DNA of 39,562 bases from a virus (Duplodnaviria; Heunggongvirae; Uroviricota; Caudoviricetes), in the IMG/VR virus record IMGVR_UViG_2690316243_000006. The stretch is one strand, 5' to 3'. Below the pieces are notes generated by a model, which worked only from the letters and a program-made list of their open reading frames with translations, did not search any database and had not been told where the DNA came from. The stretch's first letter is position 1; each line of letters starts with the position of its first letter. Positions 483 to 36,177 of the stretch are shown piece by piece. Made by a program: the position numbers and the translations under genes.

Positions 483-1220
483 TCATTCACTCTCTTTCAA
501 ACCAGTTTTAACTGTTTGTGGTTTTGGGTAAGGCTGGACTTTGAATAGCTTTGTGTTAAGGCGTTTTCTGGCTCTCTTGTCCAGAAACCGGATGTAACGA
601 AACTGACGGAATTTATGAACACTGGCTCTGTCGATATTAGCCCGCAGATGTTCACCTCGCTGTCCTCCTCGTTTGATTGCATTCTTGCAAATCTCGTGAT
701 ACCACTCGCCATCAAGTTCATAGAATGTTGTTTCATGACTGCCTACATAATCAAAATTGCTTGCCTGGTACACGACACCAAGACAGCCACAACGCTCATC
801 TGCAAACGACTGAACCCACTGCACCTGCGGATAAAGTTGTCTGATTAGTTTGAGCGCGTAACTGATTGCCCTTGATTCGGAGTTTCTCGGCATACAGTCA
901 TGCAGCCATAACCGGTTAAGCTCCATATATTCGCGGTTCTGCGTGCCAGTTACGACGCGTGCACCATTGTTTGGATTAAGGGCATAACCCCATTGCATTA
1001 CGCCAACCAGCTCCCGTTCTGAAAATATGCCCAGATGAAGGTAGGAATTATTTACGAAACGATGGCTGTAATGTTTATTGACGACGACCAGCCGGGCCAG
1101 CCAGCAACTTATTGTCTCAACCCGTAACTCACGGGAGCCATAACCGACGATATTGTCGTTATAGTGAATAAGTTCAGGCGTGCTGATGATACGGGATGTA
1201 ACTTGCTTTCTGTTCCCCAC
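483..1220 (-). CDS. mom: Mom-like DNA modification protein (start tentative: GTG at 1220 preceded by AGGAAA; the open frame extends to 1415)
   Basis: Position at the phage right end immediately downstream of, and overlapping, a Com-like zinc-finger gene, as in Mu com-mom; assignment is by synteny, not motif recognition. Confidence 0.55.
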
Positions 1221-2708: not shown

Positions 2709-4763
2709 TTACGCGTTATTCACTTCCACCACGATACTGTCAATCAGTACCGGGTAAGTCGCATTTTTAGTGATATCGGTCACGCGCAACTTGTCTGCCG
2801 TAAACGTGCCGACCGGAGACTGCGACAGCATGAATGGTGTCCCGTCCTTACCATCAATGACCGGCGTCACCTCAATACTGTTGTTACCGGCAAAACGGAA
2901 GCCCAGCGTATGCCATTCGTTATTAAATGCGCCGAATGACCCCAGCTTCGTGTTCTGCGCCGTGTTTCCTTTGTGATACATCACGTTAAGGTCTGTGGCA
3001 TCGCTCTGTACGTAGAACGATGCCAGCAGGTTATGACCGGCATTTCCTTCCAGAGTAACCCCTTGCGGCAGGGCAGAAACCGGCCAGTACAGCGCCAGTG
3101 CGTACTGATTAGCCGTAAGCGCGCCATCGAGTTTAAAACGACAACTGACAAGACCACCTTTACCCAGCAGGTCCGCACCATTACCAGCATCATGCTCAAG
3201 GTACCAGGGGGCTCTTCCTGTTTCCTTGGTCAGTTTCATTGCCTTACCCCCGCTGGCTCCGGCATCATCCACGATTTGAGCCTTGCCACCTCCGGCAGCC
3301 CAACCCTGTGGTGTCAACCGTCCTTCAGACTCAGATGCCCGGTAAGCAAATAGCGTACTCATCGTCGTGGTGTCTGCGGGTGGCGTGGACGGTTTTGATG
3401 GTGTATCAGGTGACGGCTTCTCATCCGGTGGTGTCACGGTCTGCCCGCGCATCAGTTCAGCCGTGCGCCCTGCATGGAGCATAATAGCTGAGGCCAGACG
3501 GTCTGAAATGACGCCCCTGCGTGCCCATGAGCTGAAATGGCTGTCACGCTGTGTCGAAACAAAACTGCCCTGGGTTCGGGATGCTGCACCGTAATACCCG
3601 ACAGCCACAATATCCGGGTCTTCCGCCGGAGCATTCGTTGGCGTGCTCTGTCCATTCTCATCCGTCAGGAACGGTACAAAGAAAATTTTCTGTGCTTCCT
3701 TGCCTTTGTAGCCACCGTATACTGCCTCATATTTATCGGTGCCAGCGTTTTTCCAGTAATACGTGGTATCACCGCAAATCCACGGCACCGTGGTGGCATT
3801 TCCACTCACGCACTGCGCAGCAAGCGGAGCCAGGTCAGTTCTGAACTGCTGAACCATGGCCGTGAATAAACTATTATGCTGCTGGCTTCCTGAGGCAAGG
3901 TCTGCCTCTCCCTGCATCCAGACCACAGCCAGAAGTTTGTTTTTCGGGTTTTTCGCCAGCGCGACTTTGGTGCGGCTTACCAGGTCCTGATACAGAGGTT
4001 TACCGGCCCCCCAGCGTGAAGAATCAGCGGAAGCACCGCTGGCCTCACTGAATGAGCCGTCGGCTCCAGTGGTGAATGCTGACCCGCCACGACAACAGGG
4101 CACCAGAAGTATCCCGGCATTCTGTGGGATATAGGGAAGCAGTTTTTTGGCAATATGCAACCCCTGACCGACAGTCCCGTACTGGCCTTTTGCCAGATCA
4201 GCTTTCGGGTGGTTTATCCCGCTCATATCCTGAACATCATGCAGGCAGTGGTCTGCCGGAATGATGTCGTTGTATGTACACGACGTACCGTTGGGCGTTA
4301 CCGTACTGCGGCGTGCCAGTTGCTTAATGCGTGGGTCCGGGCGGTCAAACGAATCCGGTAACGGCAGCCCCTCGCCGTAGGCCATGCCATTTGACTGACC
4401 CGCGAGAATGACAACAAAGTAATATTCCGGCTCTGAACTGCTGCCATTCGTGCTACCGGAAGGCCCGGCGTTATCCGGTGCATTCCAGTCGGAGGGCGTG
4501 AGCGTTCCGGCCACGTCAGATGTGATTGGAATGATGCCAGTCACGCCTGAACTGGTGATTTCTGCACTGGGATTACCGGATACCGGCATTACCCATAATG
4601 GCTCTTTCGTGCTGAAGCGGATCACGCAGTCTGCGAAGGTGATCCCCCCTTTATTACCCGAAGGGCGGAAAGGGCTTTCAATAAATGCCACCGTGCCACC
4701 GGCAACCTTGACTGAAAACTCTCCGGGCATGGCGGAGAGCATTTTCCACTTGGAGTCTGACAT
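2709..4763 (-). CDS. Sialate O-acetylesterase-like protein (SASA/SGNH esterase domain, Pro/Thr-rich linker, C-terminal lectin-like domain); resembles prophage NanS-p proteins
   Basis: GQSNGMAYGEG and WMQGEADLASG motifs typical of the SASA family; linker TPPDEKPSPDTPSKPSTPPADTT; about 200-aa C-terminal domain; own promoter region after the gin terminator. Confidence 0.7.
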   Translation of the reverse strand: MSDSKWKMLSAMPGEFSVKVAGGTVAFIESPFRPSGNKGGITFADCVIRFSTKEPLWVMPVSGNPSAEITSSGVTGIIPITSDVAGTLTPSDWNAPDNAGPSGSTNGSSSEPEYYFVVILAGQSNGMAYGEGLPLPDSFDRPDPRIKQLARRSTVTPNGTSCTYNDIIPADHCLHDVQDMSGINHPKADLAKGQYGTVGQGLHIAKKLLPYIPQNAGILLVPCCRGGSAFTTGADGSFSEASGASADSSRWGAGKPLYQDLVSRTKVALAKNPKNKLLAVVWMQGEADLASGSQQHNSLFTAMVQQFRTDLAPLAAQCVSGNATTVPWICGDTTYYWKNAGTDKYEAVYGGYKGKEAQKIFFVPFLTDENGQSTPTNAPAEDPDIVAVGYYGAASRTQGSFVSTQRDSHFSSWARRGVISDRLASAIMLHAGRTAELMRGQTVTPPDEKPSPDTPSKPSTPPADTTTMSTLFAYRASESEGRLTPQGWAAGGGKAQIVDDAGASGGKAMKLTKETGRAPWYLEHDAGNGADLLGKGGLVSCRFKLDGALTANQYALALYWPVSALPQGVTLEGNAGHNLLASFYVQSDATDLNVMYHKGNTAQNTKLGSFGAFNNEWHTLGFRFAGNNSIEVTPVIDGKDGTPFMLSQSPVGTFTADKLRVTDITKNATYPVLIDSIVVEVNNA

Positions 4764-4833
4764 CGTCTTTTCTGCCTGTTTCTGAATTAAACAGAGTCAG
4801 AATAGCGACCGCTGAAAAATATGTGTTTTGCGG

Positions 4834-4868
4834 AAATTCAAAAAAGCGTCACGGTACTTTTGGTGACG
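4834..4868 (-). terminator. Intrinsic terminator at the 3' end of gin
   Basis: Minus-strand hairpin CGTCAC/GTGACG (4847-4868, overlapping the gin stop codon) followed by CUUUUUUGAAUUU. Confidence 0.55.
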
Positions 4869-6436: not shown

Positions 6437-6456
6437 AGAAGGCCGGAAGGCCTTCT
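6437..6456. terminator. GC-rich hairpin between the convergent Tfa and tail-fibre genes
   Basis: AGAAGGCC GGAA GGCCTTCT (8-bp stem, 4-nt loop); flanks are AT-rich but not a clean U-run on either strand. Confidence 0.4.
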
Positions 6457-20756: not shown

Positions 20757-20933
20757 TCCGGCAGCATAAGCCGGTGTTTTTCGGGGCCGGTTTTGCGGGA
20801 CTTCAGAAAGTGCTGACAGGGGAAAAATGAGAAAGGCGCTTCACGCAGATTTTAAAGCCCGTTAAATACAGGTTAGAAAATCACGACACGCGCCTGAAGA
20901 GGGTAAGGTAATGCGTTTGTATACCTTAAACCA
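20757..20933. other. G-I intergenic spacer near the genome centre; candidate strong gyrase site
   Basis: 177-bp non-coding gap about 48 percent of the way along the prophage; in Mu the strong gyrase site lies in this spacer. Positional inference only. Confidence 0.3.
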
Positions 20934-21447: not shown

Positions 21448-21527
21448 GTCAGTGTACGCTTAACTGGTAAAGTCGGTGCCTGCCTCCGGGTGGATCATGT
21501 ATGCGGGTTCGACCCCCGCCACTGACC
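21448..21527 (+). other. tRNA-like structure (perfect acceptor stem and T-arm, no anticodon stem) in the F-G spacer
   Basis: GTCAGTG pairs with CACTGAC (7 bp); T-arm GCGGG TTCGACC CCCGC; U8-A9 and a GG-containing D-loop; no 5-bp anticodon stem can be formed. Confidence 0.35.
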
Positions 21528-28124: not shown

Positions 28125-28476
28125 TCGTGGCCGCCTTGCTGATTTGTGAAATGAGTTGCAGGGTGCGTTGCTGGTTTGCCAGCACCAGACGGGCTTCGTC
28201 CCGTTCACGCACAAGCACATGATTATTGTCCTCAAGGCGCTGCGTCTTCTGGTGCATTCCCCATACCACGGCAGCCAGCACGCTCATCACCCCCAGCGCC
28301 GCCATACAGCCTCCGGCAATCAGGGCCGGTAAGGGATTGTTCACCGCAGACACAGCACACCCCGCAGCAGCACAACGGCACACAGCAGCGCAATCATGAG
28401 CGGTCGCCAGAAGCGGTTCAGACTTTCGGCAAATCGTAACGACATAACCATTCATCCGCCGAACGGCGGGCCTCAA
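27955..28476 (-). CDS. Inner-membrane spanin (i-spanin) candidate (start uncertain)
   Basis: Hydrophobic segment LPALIAGGCMAALGVMSVLAAVVWGM followed by a charged coiled-coil-like region; immediately downstream of the lysozyme gene. Confidence 0.5.
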   Translation of the reverse strand: MRPAVRRMNGYVVTICRKSEPLLATAHDCAAVCRCAAAGCAVSAVNNPLPALIAGGCMAALGVMSVLAAVVWGMHQKTQRLEDNNHVLVRERDEARLVLANQQRTLQLISQISKAATNEKQQNMQHSEEQQSIVRRSLATVPAAAVPVSDDVADRVRRAVCEIRPCAAGADPR

Positions 28477-28918
28477 GACCGGGGAGTTTTACCCCCTTTG
28501 AATAAATCCAGCGGATATACTGCTTACAGGACGCGGGCATCTGCCCGGCATTGATAAGGCGCAGGAGCGTGGAGTTGCGAAAGTTCGTTTCACCGGCCCA
28601 GAAAATCCAGGAGGCCAGCGCCACCGTCTGACCACGGGTAAGCGGCACCTGAACATGACGATCGATAGCCGCAAAGGCCCATTTCATGTCCTTTTCCAGC
28701 AGCTCCAGACACTCTTCATCAGTTTTTGTCATCCCCGGTTTCACATCCGGGCCGGTATGGCCGTAACAGATGGTGGGGGTGCCGGTGGGATCAATGTACG
28801 TGGTGTTTTCTTTCCCTTCCCAGTAGCCGGTGTAGTGCGTGGCAATGGTGAACGTCCCGGCTCCGGCCAGAACAAGGGCAATCAGCTTTTTACGCAGGGG
28901 TGCGGGGAGTTTTGGCAT
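28418..28918 (-). CDS. Endolysin (lysozyme) with N-terminal signal-anchor-release-like segment
   Basis: N-terminus KKLIALVLAGAGTFTIA followed by TICYGHTGPD, similar in architecture to Mu gp22. Confidence 0.8.
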   Translation of the reverse strand: MPKLPAPLRKKLIALVLAGAGTFTIATHYTGYWEGKENTTYIDPTGTPTICYGHTGPDVKPGMTKTDEECLELLEKDMKWAFAAIDRHVQVPLTRGQTVALASWIFWAGETNFRNSTLLRLINAGQMPASCKQYIRWIYSKGVKLPGLEARRSADEWLCRYDLPKV

Positions 28919-28989
28919 TGTTACGCTGTCTCATGGTGTTCTCTGAGTCAGCGTAACCGTGAGGAAAAGGGGGCAGGATTTGCGGAATA

Positions 28990-29412
28990 TCAGAAAAGCC
29001 GGGGCTGCGTGCGCTCCTGATGCAGGCGACGCTGGTTGCGGATAACGGAGTAAATCTGCGTCTCTGACATCTGGTAGTGGCGGCGCAGGGTTTCAATTTT
29101 TTCGCCCTGGCTCCAGCGGGAAAAAATTTCATTATTGCGCAGTTCGGTGAAAAGGGATTCACCGACCGGGAGATAATAACCACGCCCGCCCATGTACCCG
29201 GCCTGTGCGGCTGCAACCTTACGGGCAAGCATTCCCGCCTGAGCAGGTTCAATCCCCTGACGGTGCAGTTCAGCACTGATCACATCAACCAGGTCCCGCA
29301 GCGTGCCGGGCCAGTTCTTTTTCAGCTCATCATCAGGAATATCATCCAGACGGTCAATCAGCGCGTGCAGCTGTTCGCTGTCACCAAACATGCTCATCTG
29401 TGTTTCAGCCAT
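28990..29412 (-). CDS. Mor/C-family transcription activator (likely the late-gene activator by position upstream of lys)
   Basis: 140 aa; C-terminal HTH ...IETLRRHYQMSETQIYSVIRNQRRL resembles Mor/C. Confidence 0.7.
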   Translation of the reverse strand: MAETQMSMFGDSEQLHALIDRLDDIPDDELKKNWPGTLRDLVDVISAELHRQGIEPAQAGMLARKVAAAQAGYMGGRGYYLPVGESLFTELRNNEIFSRWSQGEKIETLRRHYQMSETQIYSVIRNQRRLHQERTQPRLF

Positions 29413-29443
29413 ACCCGCCTCCGGTCATCATTACACAGGGCAA

Positions 29444-29476
29444 GTTTAAAATAAAAATCCCGCGCTGTGGCGGGAT
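29444..29476 (-). terminator. Intrinsic terminator immediately after gemA
   Basis: Minus-strand hairpin ATCCCGC/GCGGGAT followed by UUUUUAUUUUAAAC. Confidence 0.55.
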
Positions 29477-29482
29477 TTGGGG

Positions 29483-29995
29483 TTAACGGGGGAATGATTT
29501 TTCATACAGCCTGCAAACACGCTCATAACTCATCACTGCACGTTCCGACATATCCAGGGCTGCCAGCATTTTGCGGCGGTGCCAGCGTTTGAGACGCTCC
29601 AGCACATCAGAGGCCAGCGCGGGTTGTTGCTCCAGCCACTGCCAGTTAGCCACACCTTCGCCGTCGTTCTGCGCGGCCGTCTGCGATTTCACCCAGCGGT
29701 TAAGGGCCGTTTCCCCGCCATCAGAGATAAATCCCTGCCGGTGCATCACTTTCCAGATGGCGCGAATTTTGGCGGTCACCGTACCCGGTTTTAAGGCCCG
29801 GTTAACCGGCTTCTGACGCACTTTAAAACCGCGTTTTTTGAAAACATCCAGCACGCGGGATAACTCACCGGGTGACATATCACGGCAACTGGATTTGCCG
29901 GTGGCTGCCAGCAGCGCGGATGTATAGGTATCATGGTCAAGCTGTAGATCGCGTTTTGCGACATGTATTAAGGTAATCAGGGAAGCGCGATTCAT
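29483..29995 (-). CDS. gemA: GemA-like protein (Mu gp16 family)
   Basis: MNRASLITLIHVAKRDLQLDHDTYTSALLAATGKSSCRDMSPGELSRVLDVFKKRGF matches my recollection of the gp16 family N-terminus. Confidence 0.65.
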   Translation of the reverse strand: MNRASLITLIHVAKRDLQLDHDTYTSALLAATGKSSCRDMSPGELSRVLDVFKKRGFKVRQKPVNRALKPGTVTAKIRAIWKVMHRQGFISDGGETALNRWVKSQTAAQNDGEGVANWQWLEQQPALASDVLERLKRWHRRKMLAALDMSERAVMSYERVCRLYEKSFPR

Positions 29996-30011
29996 TATCG
30001 TGGCTCCATAA

Positions 30012-30037
30012 AAAATGGGCGGTGTTACCGCACCGCC
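30012..30037 (-). terminator. Intrinsic terminator or attenuator just upstream of gemA
   Basis: Minus-strand hairpin GGCGGTG/CACCGCC (30018-30037) followed by CAUUUUUUAU, ending about 15 nt before the gemA RBS. Confidence 0.5.
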
Positions 30038-30065: not shown

Positions 30066-30305
30066 ATGTCAGATATAAAAAATGCACTTGATGTTGCCGC
30101 ATTCACAATGGCTGGAAATCTTATGGTAACCCTGTTCGATAAGGGGCTGATTTCCCGTGAGGAGGCAATACATATTATCAATCTCGCTCAAAAAAACTCT
30201 ACCCCGGAAAATGCAGAAGATATCCAGGATGGCTCATATATTAATACCGACTGGCATTTCGACAATCTCCGGGCCTGTATGGGGATTACCGCTGAAAAAG
30301 ATTAA
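30066..30305 (+). CDS. Hypothetical protein (79 aa) on the opposite strand to the early operon
   Basis: AAGGA RBS 8 nt before the ATG; AT-rich island; 3' end overlaps the convergent minus-strand ORF by 20 nt. Confidence 0.4.
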   Translation: MSDIKNALDVAAFTMAGNLMVTLFDKGLISREEAIHIINLAQKNSTPENAEDIQDGSYINTDWHFDNLRACMGITAEKD

Positions 30306-30718: not shown

Positions 30719-31043
30719 TATGTATCCCCTGTAATTCCGGCAAGGCCGAAAGATGGCACCAGTGCGTCACCTGTCCGTCCTCATCTTCAAGGCAGGCTCC
30801 GGTTTCTTCATCAATAAAAAAGCCTTCATACCCCATATGGCCGATGCGCAGTTCCTGTTGGTCACCATACTGAACAATCAGCACGACAGCCTCCATATCA
30901 GGCGGAAATGCGTCATCCAGTGAATGCCAGGGATAACCGCGCAAATCCCCGAAATAAACGCCGGTCAGCGTTCCGCCACAGAGCGGCATTCCGGCGGCAC
31001 ACACAAGAGGTTCATCTGATTCAACAAATAAGGTCGTTATCAT
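30711..31043 (-). CDS. Hypothetical strongly acidic protein (110 aa)
   Basis: About 19 Asp/Glu against very few basic residues; early-region position. Confidence 0.5.
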   Translation of the reverse strand: MITTLFVESDEPLVCAAGMPLCGGTLTGVYFGDLRGYPWHSLDDAFPPDMEAVVLIVQYGDQQELRIGHMGYEGFFIDEETGACLEDEDGQVTHWCHLSALPELQGIHNG

Positions 31044-31591
31044 GGCGTTAACTCCCGTAATACAGCGTCCTCGGCAGTCCGGCGACGGTAATAAACTGCG
31101 TGAGCAGAATGTTCAGATATTCCAAACTTTTCGCCAATTTCCCGGAATGACAGACGGCGTGGGTAATCGGAATCACGCAGCGCACGTATAAGACGTACAT
31201 CATCATCAGATATGCGCGTGCCGGGGCGTAACTCTCCGCACTTTGTTAATCCAGCACCAATCATTCCTGCCCGACATCTGACAGAATCTTTATTACGTCC
31301 GAGATATTCTCCCATTTGCTGGCAGGTCATTGTTCTGGCATTTTTTCGAATAAACTTATCTTCATCAGGTGTAAATCTTGGGTGTTTATATTTCAGTAAC
31401 TCCGGGTATGAACTGCGCAATACACCAGTCCGGTTATATACAGCCCAGACAGTTCTTTTTATTCTGGCAGCAATATCCTTAACCGGGGTGGATGAATAAA
31501 GCGCAATCAGCAGCGCATCTTCTTCAGGTGTCCACGGACGGACATGAGCGGGGGCGCGACCTTTTAGTCCCATGGGTTGTAATTTCATCAT
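31040..31591 (-). CDS. Putative DNA-binding protein with Myb/SANT-like N-terminal motifs and a C-terminal HTH
   Basis: RPWTPEEDALLIALY and FTPDEDKFIRKN motifs; C-terminal FREIGEKFGISEHSAHAVYYRRR resembles Mor/C or sigma region-4 HTH. Confidence 0.55.
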   Translation of the reverse strand: MMKLQPMGLKGRAPAHVRPWTPEEDALLIALYSSTPVKDIAARIKRTVWAVYNRTGVLRSSYPELLKYKHPRFTPDEDKFIRKNARTMTCQQMGEYLGRNKDSVRCRAGMIGAGLTKCGELRPGTRISDDDVRLIRALRDSDYPRRLSFREIGEKFGISEHSAHAVYYRRRTAEDAVLRELTP

Positions 31592-36102: not shown

Positions 36103-36177
36103 ATTATTACCTCGCGTTTGTGTAGTTCCTTTGTTTAATCAAATAACCTGAGTCGCCGCTCGGGTTATTTTTTTATT

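Follow-up and report, generated by a model that had tools for sequence, protein, structure and literature searches.

Two hairpins bracket gemA in a Mu-like prophage: a predicted early terminator in front of a C-type late activator gene and a conserved stem-loop upstream of gemA

In the Mu-like prophage analysed here, gemA is bracketed by two hairpins. A preceding sequence-only reading had placed them at these positions, and sequences, folds, a strict terminator scan and conservation agree on both. We consider a model rather probable, though far from settled, in which the hairpin following gemA (H2) is a strong early terminator located before the sole late activator gene, C, and the hairpin upstream of gemA (H1) is a weak accessory attenuator.

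The window, that is, the whole stretch of 39,562 nucleotides that was analysed, is a Mu-like prophage transcribed on the minus strand. The gene order is repressor (plus strand, near 39 kb), transposase A and B, small early genes, gemA, the Mor/C gene and lysozyme, followed by lysis, head and tail genes (Table 1). The names gemA and Mor/C gene had already been given in the sequence-only reading and hold in profile searches (PF06252, E 2e-28; PF08765, E 7e-31). The gemA-C-lys region was matched in 231 of 5426 complete E. coli genomes, and the part upstream of gemA in only 13; the identity to E. coli JE86-ST05 in this region is 99.7%. The map of transcription units proposed here is set for a very common family of Mu-like prophages of E. 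coli and Shigella. The early region also encodes a 183-aa protein with a SANT/Myb-type HTH domain (31040-31591, minus strand) that matches phrog_323, 'D5-like transcriptional regulator', and is without a counterpart in Mu; its gene occurs in some relatives and is missing from others, regardless of H2.

Table 1. Positions of the features in and around the gemA region of the window.
Feature	Position	Strand	Remarks
Opposite-strand accessory gene, 79 aa, between gp14-like early gene and H1	30066..30305	+	phrog_32893, E 1.3e-45, full length; annotated CDS in relatives
H1: GGCGGTG (30037-30031), loop CGGTAA, CACCGCC (30024-30018)	30018..30037	-	conserved RNA stem-loop
T6 after H1, offset by CA (2 nt)	30010..30015	-	
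gemA Shine-Dalgarno sequence, GGAG	30004..30007	-	gemA ATG at 29995
gemA, 170 aa	29483..29995	-	PF06252, E 1.8e-28; phrog_286
H2: AAATCCCGC (29478-29470), loop CACAGC, GCGGGATTT (29463-29455)	29455..29478	-	predicted intrinsic terminator at the end of the early operon
U-rich tail of H2, TTATTTT	29448..29454	-	
TATTTT, candidate -10 of a -35-less C promoter	29448-29453	-	overlaps the T-tract of H2
C-type late transcription activator, 140 aa	28990..29412	-	PF08765, E 6.7e-31; phrog_532, late transcriptional activator
Plys-like late promoter: operator-like dyad TTTTCTGA-TAT-TCCGCAAA (28997-28979; overlaps C stop codon), -10 TACGCT (28955-28950)	28950..28997	-	
Lysozyme (lys)	28418-28918	-	

A loose terminator scan of the window returned 17 sites compared to 17.4 expected from shuffled sequences, indicating no enrichment. 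We also performed a strict scan (perfect stem of at least 7 bp with at least 5 G-C pairs, loop of 3-8 nt, at least 5 T in 8), using 100 dinucleotide shuffles as control. Five sites were obtained on the minus strand and none on the plus strand, compared to 0.24 +/- 0.45 sites per strand (maximum 2) in the shuffles. Sites of the strict type are, accordingly, enriched about 20-fold on the coding strand (5 vs 0.24). The best T-runs among the five are those of H1 and H2, both of which are located in intergenic spacers. That the two hairpins are chance inverted repeats beside T-rich spacers would agree with the outcome of the loose scan. However, this reading is already contradicted by the result of the strict scan and by the conservation of H1 and H2 well beyond their flanks, and we hold it to be extremely improbable. 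Rfam at gathering thresholds, ARAGORN and PADLOC returned nothing for the region of the hairpins flanking gemA. The remaining three strict hairpins are located at 6437-6456, 4719-4739 and 1802-1818, all on the minus strand; the first of these, AGAAGGCC-TTCC-GGCCTTCT followed by TTATT, is located close to where a small late gene ends.

H2 begins 4 nt past the gemA stop codon (TAA, 29485-29483) and has a stem of 9 bp, of which 5 are G-C pairs, and a loop of 6 nt (-13.5 kcal/mol; z = -3.0). The U-tract lies immediately 3' of the GCGGGA core, and the tail following this core, TTTTTATTTT, consists of T at 9 of 10 positions. With 4.81, the tail score of H2 equals that of the post-mor terminator of Mu. 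The d'Aubenton-Carafa-type d-score of core plus tail, +24.1, is identical to that of the Mu post-mor hairpin as well; the formula was combined with modern energy parameters, so that d-scores provide a relative ranking only. Downstream of C, no further terminator occurs before the lysis and late genes. Read-through at H2 would consequently enter the lysis genes, and this accounts for the requirement of a strong stop at this position. These features support a role of H2 as a strong Rho-independent terminator that would end most of the transcription of the early operon. The sequence-only reading had likewise proposed that H2 ends the early transcript before the Mor/C gene, and this proposal is strengthened by the position at the end of the early gene string, the match to the Mu post-mor hairpin in shape and score, and the conservation in deep relatives. 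As a potential attenuator or anti-terminator upstream of H2, only a sub-threshold match to Trp_leader was obtained (21.5 bits compared to a gathering score of 41), and inspection by eye revealed no alternative pairing.

The GenBank record of Mu lists a predicted terminator, AAAGCCGG-TTAAT-CCGGCTTT followed by T7, which comes right behind mor and falls within the middle promoter activated by Mor, and so does the record of D108. In Mu, Mor is encoded by the early transcript and binds to a dyad of 16 bp that spans -51 to -36 in a promoter without a -35. In our reconstruction, this dyad would overlap the left arm and the loop of the Mu post-mor hairpin. Like the Mu terminator, H2 is a hairpin rich in G+C, bordered by an A-tract and a long T-tract, that follows the last early gene and precedes the gene string leading to the late activator. 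The Mu hairpin is followed by a -35-less promoter, and H2, in the window and in relatives, by a promoter-like T-tract/TATAnT sequence. In contrast to Mu, where the hairpin follows mor and the Mor dyad activates Pm, H2 follows gemA and the next gene is C. In addition, the stems are unrelated (GCCGG in Mu, TCCCGC in H2), and a Pm-like CCTGTG box is not conserved in the relatives. The region 29413-29500 contains no AGTAA-N6-TTAAT-like dyad of the 16-bp Mor type (5-bp inverted repeat with a G/C-rich 6-bp spacer, near -43.5). Between gemA and lys no mor gene was found, and the junction is not of the Mu Pm type. We regard H1 and H2 as intrinsic elements of the ordinary terminator type within an architecture already known; what varies is the layout, with a terminator directly before C and no Mor. 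The terminator of the Mu early operon after mor is designated t9.2; the term 't9.2' had no match in a full-text literature search.

Judged by its sequence, the gene following H2 is a C-type late activator and not Mor. The deduced protein is 40% identical to Mu C (2e-37, 111 bits) compared to 28% identity to Mu Mor (5e-17, 59 bits), it has the length of Mu C, and its gene is located directly upstream of lys. It is the only representative of the Mor/C family found between gemA and lys; a second one was absent. The pattern TGANNTNCCGCAAA has three exact matches in the window (28979, 20792 and 4827), all of them intergenic and on the minus strand. They mark a dyad, TTTYYTGA-N3-YCCGCAAA, about 30 nt upstream of a -10 of the type TAnnCT (28979-28997, 20792-20805 and 4827-4840, minus strand). 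The dyad-bearing late operons (lys, protease/scaffold and tail-fibre) lack a -35, and the phage's own C gene is not preceded by the dyad. We consider the three dyads candidate binding sites of the C-type activator; the layout of these late promoters parallels that of Plys in Mu. The Mor/C gene had been assigned a role as middle/late activator in the sequence-only reading. The late part of this assignment stands, given the similarity to C, the position before lys and the motif at three late operons, but the middle part does not, as there is no separate middle tier.

The sequence TATTTT downstream of the H2 stem matches the -10 consensus at 4 of 6 positions. In the relatives, the T-tract is followed by TATAAT, TATACT, TATATT or TATAGT in every lineage, at a distance of 1-6 nt from the hairpin, and T-tract and TATAnT are kept where H2 has been lost (L180, L053 and L050). 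The T-tract/TATAnT box is the probable -10 of a -35-less promoter for C. No activator site for such a promoter was found, and two candidate elements were rejected, one as the conserved promoter and the other as a site of autoregulation. The first, a Pm-like -10 region, CCTGTGTAATGA, can be aligned with Mu CCTGTGATGAATAA, both being equally far from the hairpin centre; O157-type relatives retain the hairpin but have unrelated sequence in place of this region. The motif CAAATCCYGCC, present in the left arm of H2 and in the lys promoter, was considered as an autoregulatory C site; it has 4 matches compared to 2 expected, two of which are inside coding sequence, its flank is not conserved, and the late operator is missing from the gemA-C spacer. 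Within 29413-29500, the late-operator motif gave no match even with one mismatch allowed. A partial resemblance to the operator in the same spacer, CCCCAAATCCCGCC, is not conserved, and the upstream flank is replaced in cargo-bearing relatives. In these comparisons, no evidence was obtained for autoregulation of C through the late operator.

H2 is identical save for one loop base in every E. coli relative that was examined, the most distant having 84% nucleotide identity. It is also identical in relatives from Salmonella and Citrobacter, in which the C protein is 66-67% identical, the downstream spacer differs and the flanks diverge. To avoid circularity, a sample independent of the hairpin was collected by means of a degenerate DNA pattern on the C-protein motif YMGGRxYYLP and comprised 9 species. 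In 7 of these 9, CCCGC-loop-GCGGG with a T-run was located between gemA (or cargo) and C, and one further species (L180) has an outer-pair variant of H2 after gemA. Across 16 lineages of Mu-like prophages, the five G-C pairs of H2 are constant and the loops vary at every position, most of these lineages having been retrieved with a pattern requiring the stem, so that part of the invariance of the stem is due to ascertainment. In one of the 16 lineages, two outer pairs show compensatory changes. As each single change weakens a short stem made up of G-C pairs only, such a stem should be frozen, and therefore the invariance of H2 alone needs no binding protein.

In the relatives, gemA lies upstream of H2 either directly or with a cargo gene in between. 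The gemA-C junction is a hotspot for cargo, which occurs in either orientation and in some cases between two copies of H2 (cargo-bearing lineages: L016/L034/L052/L121, L100/L132, L133/L170, L110/L145, L058, L070, L091, L175 and L178). Cargo at this junction includes an ORF of 113 aa and two distinct ORFs of 140 aa, the product of one being secreted-looking, as well as a related secreted-looking protein of 128 aa. The gemA-side copy of H2 is always intact in cargo-bearing relatives. The C-side copy often retains only the right arm and the T-tract (L070, L091 and L110) or is lost (L053 and L180), and C is intact in these lineages. Thus, the gemA-side copy is kept and the C-side copy is dispensable, indicating that the stem is retained where early transcription must stop, which favours a terminator over an operator.

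These data bear on the possibility that H2 is chiefly a DNA operator, with termination being secondary: an early phage protein such as GemA, or else C, would bind to the dyad TCCCGC-N6-GCGGGA and thereby turn the C promoter on or off, similar to the Mor site of Mu that overlaps a hairpin. A binding site would account for a core stem that stays constant, with variable loops, in lineages sharing 43-50% protein identity, although selection for stability alone could freeze a short stem composed of G-C pairs. A precedent is Mu, in which the Mor site (-51 to -36), as reconstructed here, extends over the terminator hairpin at its left arm and loop. Against an operator, the spacing between the dyad and TATAnT varies from 1 to 6 nt, a poor geometry for an activator. 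Some cargo-bearing relatives do retain a second intact copy beside C, but in L070, L091, L110, L053, L180 and L050 the C-side copy is without its left arm or gone, and C is intact. Furthermore, the dyad is unlike the late operator of the window phage, the gene for the 183-aa HTH protein does not co-occur with it, and the stem also serves as an ordinary terminator in unrelated phage contexts. Taken together, we consider an operator as the main function of H2 unlikely. The sequence-only reading had named the 183-aa HTH protein as a possible regulator acting on the gemA-C spacer; this suggestion was dropped, as the protein is absent from Citrobacter-type relatives that have H2 and its gene does not accompany H2 in the relatives. 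The recurrence of the exact stem in unrelated phage contexts also led us to consider H2 as a mobile element. This was rejected since chance sharing of a 6-bp core amounts to about 1 in 4096 and, with the number of terminators contained in the collection, convergence suffices.

In a combined version, gemA, H2 and C would form a self-contained timer in which the dyad TCCCGC-N6-GCGGGA is both the early terminator and the operator of an early protein, most plausibly GemA, that licenses the -35-less C promoter. We assign a low probability to this version, marginally below that of an operator as the chief function. We know of no molecular role established for GemA, and if the timer exists, GemA would gain a defined function in Mu-like phages without Mor.

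A further possibility is that the hairpins are mainly recombination joints at the boundaries of modules or cassettes and that their conservation results from repeated exchange of the flanking modules. Homology with most relatives indeed breaks at or beside H1, and varied cargo in either orientation is found at the gemA-C junction next to a copy of H2, in some cases between two copies. However, recombination leaves the U-tracts, the strand bias (5 vs 0) and the perfect gemA-side copy unexplained, and it is compatible with termination rather than a true alternative to it. It is therefore doubtful, on a par with the timer, that this is their main function. The borders of gemA can be regarded as slots for the insertion of accessory genes. 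The 79-aa gene next to H1 and the cargo next to copies of H2 resemble phage morons, i.e., accessory genes between core genes with their own transcription signals. Unlike in morons, the terminator is on the early strand of the phage and not at the 3' end of the insert, and some inserts have a hairpin on both sides.

According to the terminator model that we favour, H2 would insulate the C gene and the following lysis and late genes from early read-through and would represent the counterpart of the post-mor terminator within Pm of Mu. The family of the window phage would have lost the Mor tier, leaving the terminator directly before a single late activator. C may first be made from residual read-through at H2, from the weak -35-less promoter (-10 TATTTT, 29453-29448), or from both. 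Subsequently, C would switch on the late promoters with TTTYYTGA-N3-YCCGCAAA. The family would thus have a two-tier cascade (early, C, late) compared to the three tiers of Mu. If H2 is efficient, the initial expression of C beyond so strong a terminator becomes a testable question.

H1 has a 7-bp stem with 6 G-C pairs and a free energy of approximately -12.4 kcal/mol (z = -1.6 for a 46-nt slice and -2.7 for 111 nt). Its d-score is -27.5 in a strict parse and +6.9 with an extended bulged stem, which is below or near threshold. The stem is present at equal distance to the gemA Shine-Dalgarno sequence in Mu, SfMu, D108, a Yersinia phage, a Klebsiella phage and several prophage lineages. In Mu, SfMu and D108, GGCGGTG/CACCGCC is identical to the window, the distance to the gemA ATG is also equal, and a small opposite-strand ORF is located upstream in most of them. 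In our alignment A2, GGAG-N-ACGA-N-ATG is unchanging. Within the alignment of H1, 98.6% of the cells are paired, one pair is compensatory (U-A to C-G), and the G-U wobbles fit the gemA-sense RNA only. The pairing together with the sense-only wobbles indicates that H1 is an RNA structure of the early or the gemA transcript. The tract following the stem is variable: four lineages, the window, L011, L091 and L173, have T5-T8 (T8 in L173), and the Mu group has CCCTTTCC. Unlike H1 of the window with its T6, the hairpin of the Mu group has the loop TTGCAG and only CCCTTTCC or TCTTTCC after the stem, and is not terminator-like (-40.6). Based on these comparisons, H1 is probably an accessory element that attenuates early transcription in the window lineage, and at best a weak one. 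Of the earlier proposal that H1 attenuates read-through into gemA, the hairpin itself is confirmed, and it is a conserved RNA hairpin. A terminator role is only plausible, since the U-tract is 2 nt off, the homologues in Mu, SfMu and D108 have just CCCTTTCC, and the hairpin is missing in most E. coli relatives.

Alternatively, H1 may be a 5'-UTR or processing element of a gemA transcript that starts from its own promoter, with the T6 being incidental. The hairpin would then serve to stabilise the 5' end or, jointly with the pyrimidine tract after it, to modulate how accessible the gemA Shine-Dalgarno sequence is. In the GenBank record of Mu (AF083977), the hairpin upstream of gemA lies inside an annotated 'semi-early promoter', which supports this alternative, but in the window the sequence upstream of H1 yielded no convincing sigma-70 promoter. 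The homologues of the Mu group lack a U-run (d = -40.6), and stem and Shine-Dalgarno spacing are conserved over a variable intervening tract; on the other hand, T5-T8 follows the stem in the four lineages named above. The tract after H1 can pair with the Shine-Dalgarno sequence in predicted folds, but this pairing is weak in the window (4 bp) and its register is not conserved. We regard this alternative as a serious one, although the odds are tilted against it.

The favoured reading of H1 as an attenuator is linked to the gene arrangement upstream of gemA. H1 is absent from most E. coli relatives, in which gemA and the gene upstream of it overlap; this arrangement is the commonest one in E. 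coli. It is present wherever an opposite-strand gene precedes gemA and, in addition, in one phage without such a gene. Among the relatives examined, H1 was never found where gemA overlaps a co-directional upstream gene. In the window, the opposite-strand gene is located at 30066-30305 and had been overlooked in the sequence-only reading; other lineages have a different opposite-strand gene at the equivalent spot. H1 may accordingly be placed at the 5' border of the gemA unit, where it would be folded in the gemA-sense transcript and act as a partial terminator in the window lineage. It would attenuate early transcripts after their antisense passage through the opposite-strand accessory gene and would thus be accessory to an inserted module, outside the core cascade.

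In one relative, L003 (E. coli AF39), the H1 slot upstream of gemA is occupied by another opposite-strand gene, encoding a DUF2513 protein (1605-1952), and the L003 version of H1 is longer, with 10 bp and compensatory changes. The swapped gene together with the altered hairpin indicates module swapping exactly at the hairpin.

Mu (AF083977; L008) has an unannotated opposite-strand ORF of 88 aa at the same place (897-1163, minus strand), which matches phrog_8747 (E 7e-60) and is annotated as gp16 in SfMu. It overlaps the annotated 55-aa Mu_54, which is without a PHROG match and may be a mis-call. The opposite-strand ORFs of the window and of Mu had no significant match to each other in BLASTP, and a weak PHROG cross-match is the sole link between them.

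Two further elements were observed elsewhere in the window. A tRNA-like sequence at 21448-21527 (plus strand) is antisense to the late operon in the spacer between a 443-aa and a 157-aa gene. It scores 31 bits compared to the Rfam tRNA gathering score of 29 when the region is searched alone, and ARAGORN and the Rfam run on the whole window were silent. Its acceptor, D and T arms are good, and its anticodon region is over-long. A hairpin of 13 bp, AAATAACC(C/T)GAG...CTCGGGTTATTT, with A/T tracts on both sides is located at 36141-36170, where it separates the genes for transposase A and B. It is terminator-like on the plus strand, has just TTT after it on the early (minus) strand, and could be an A-B attenuator or an antisense stop.
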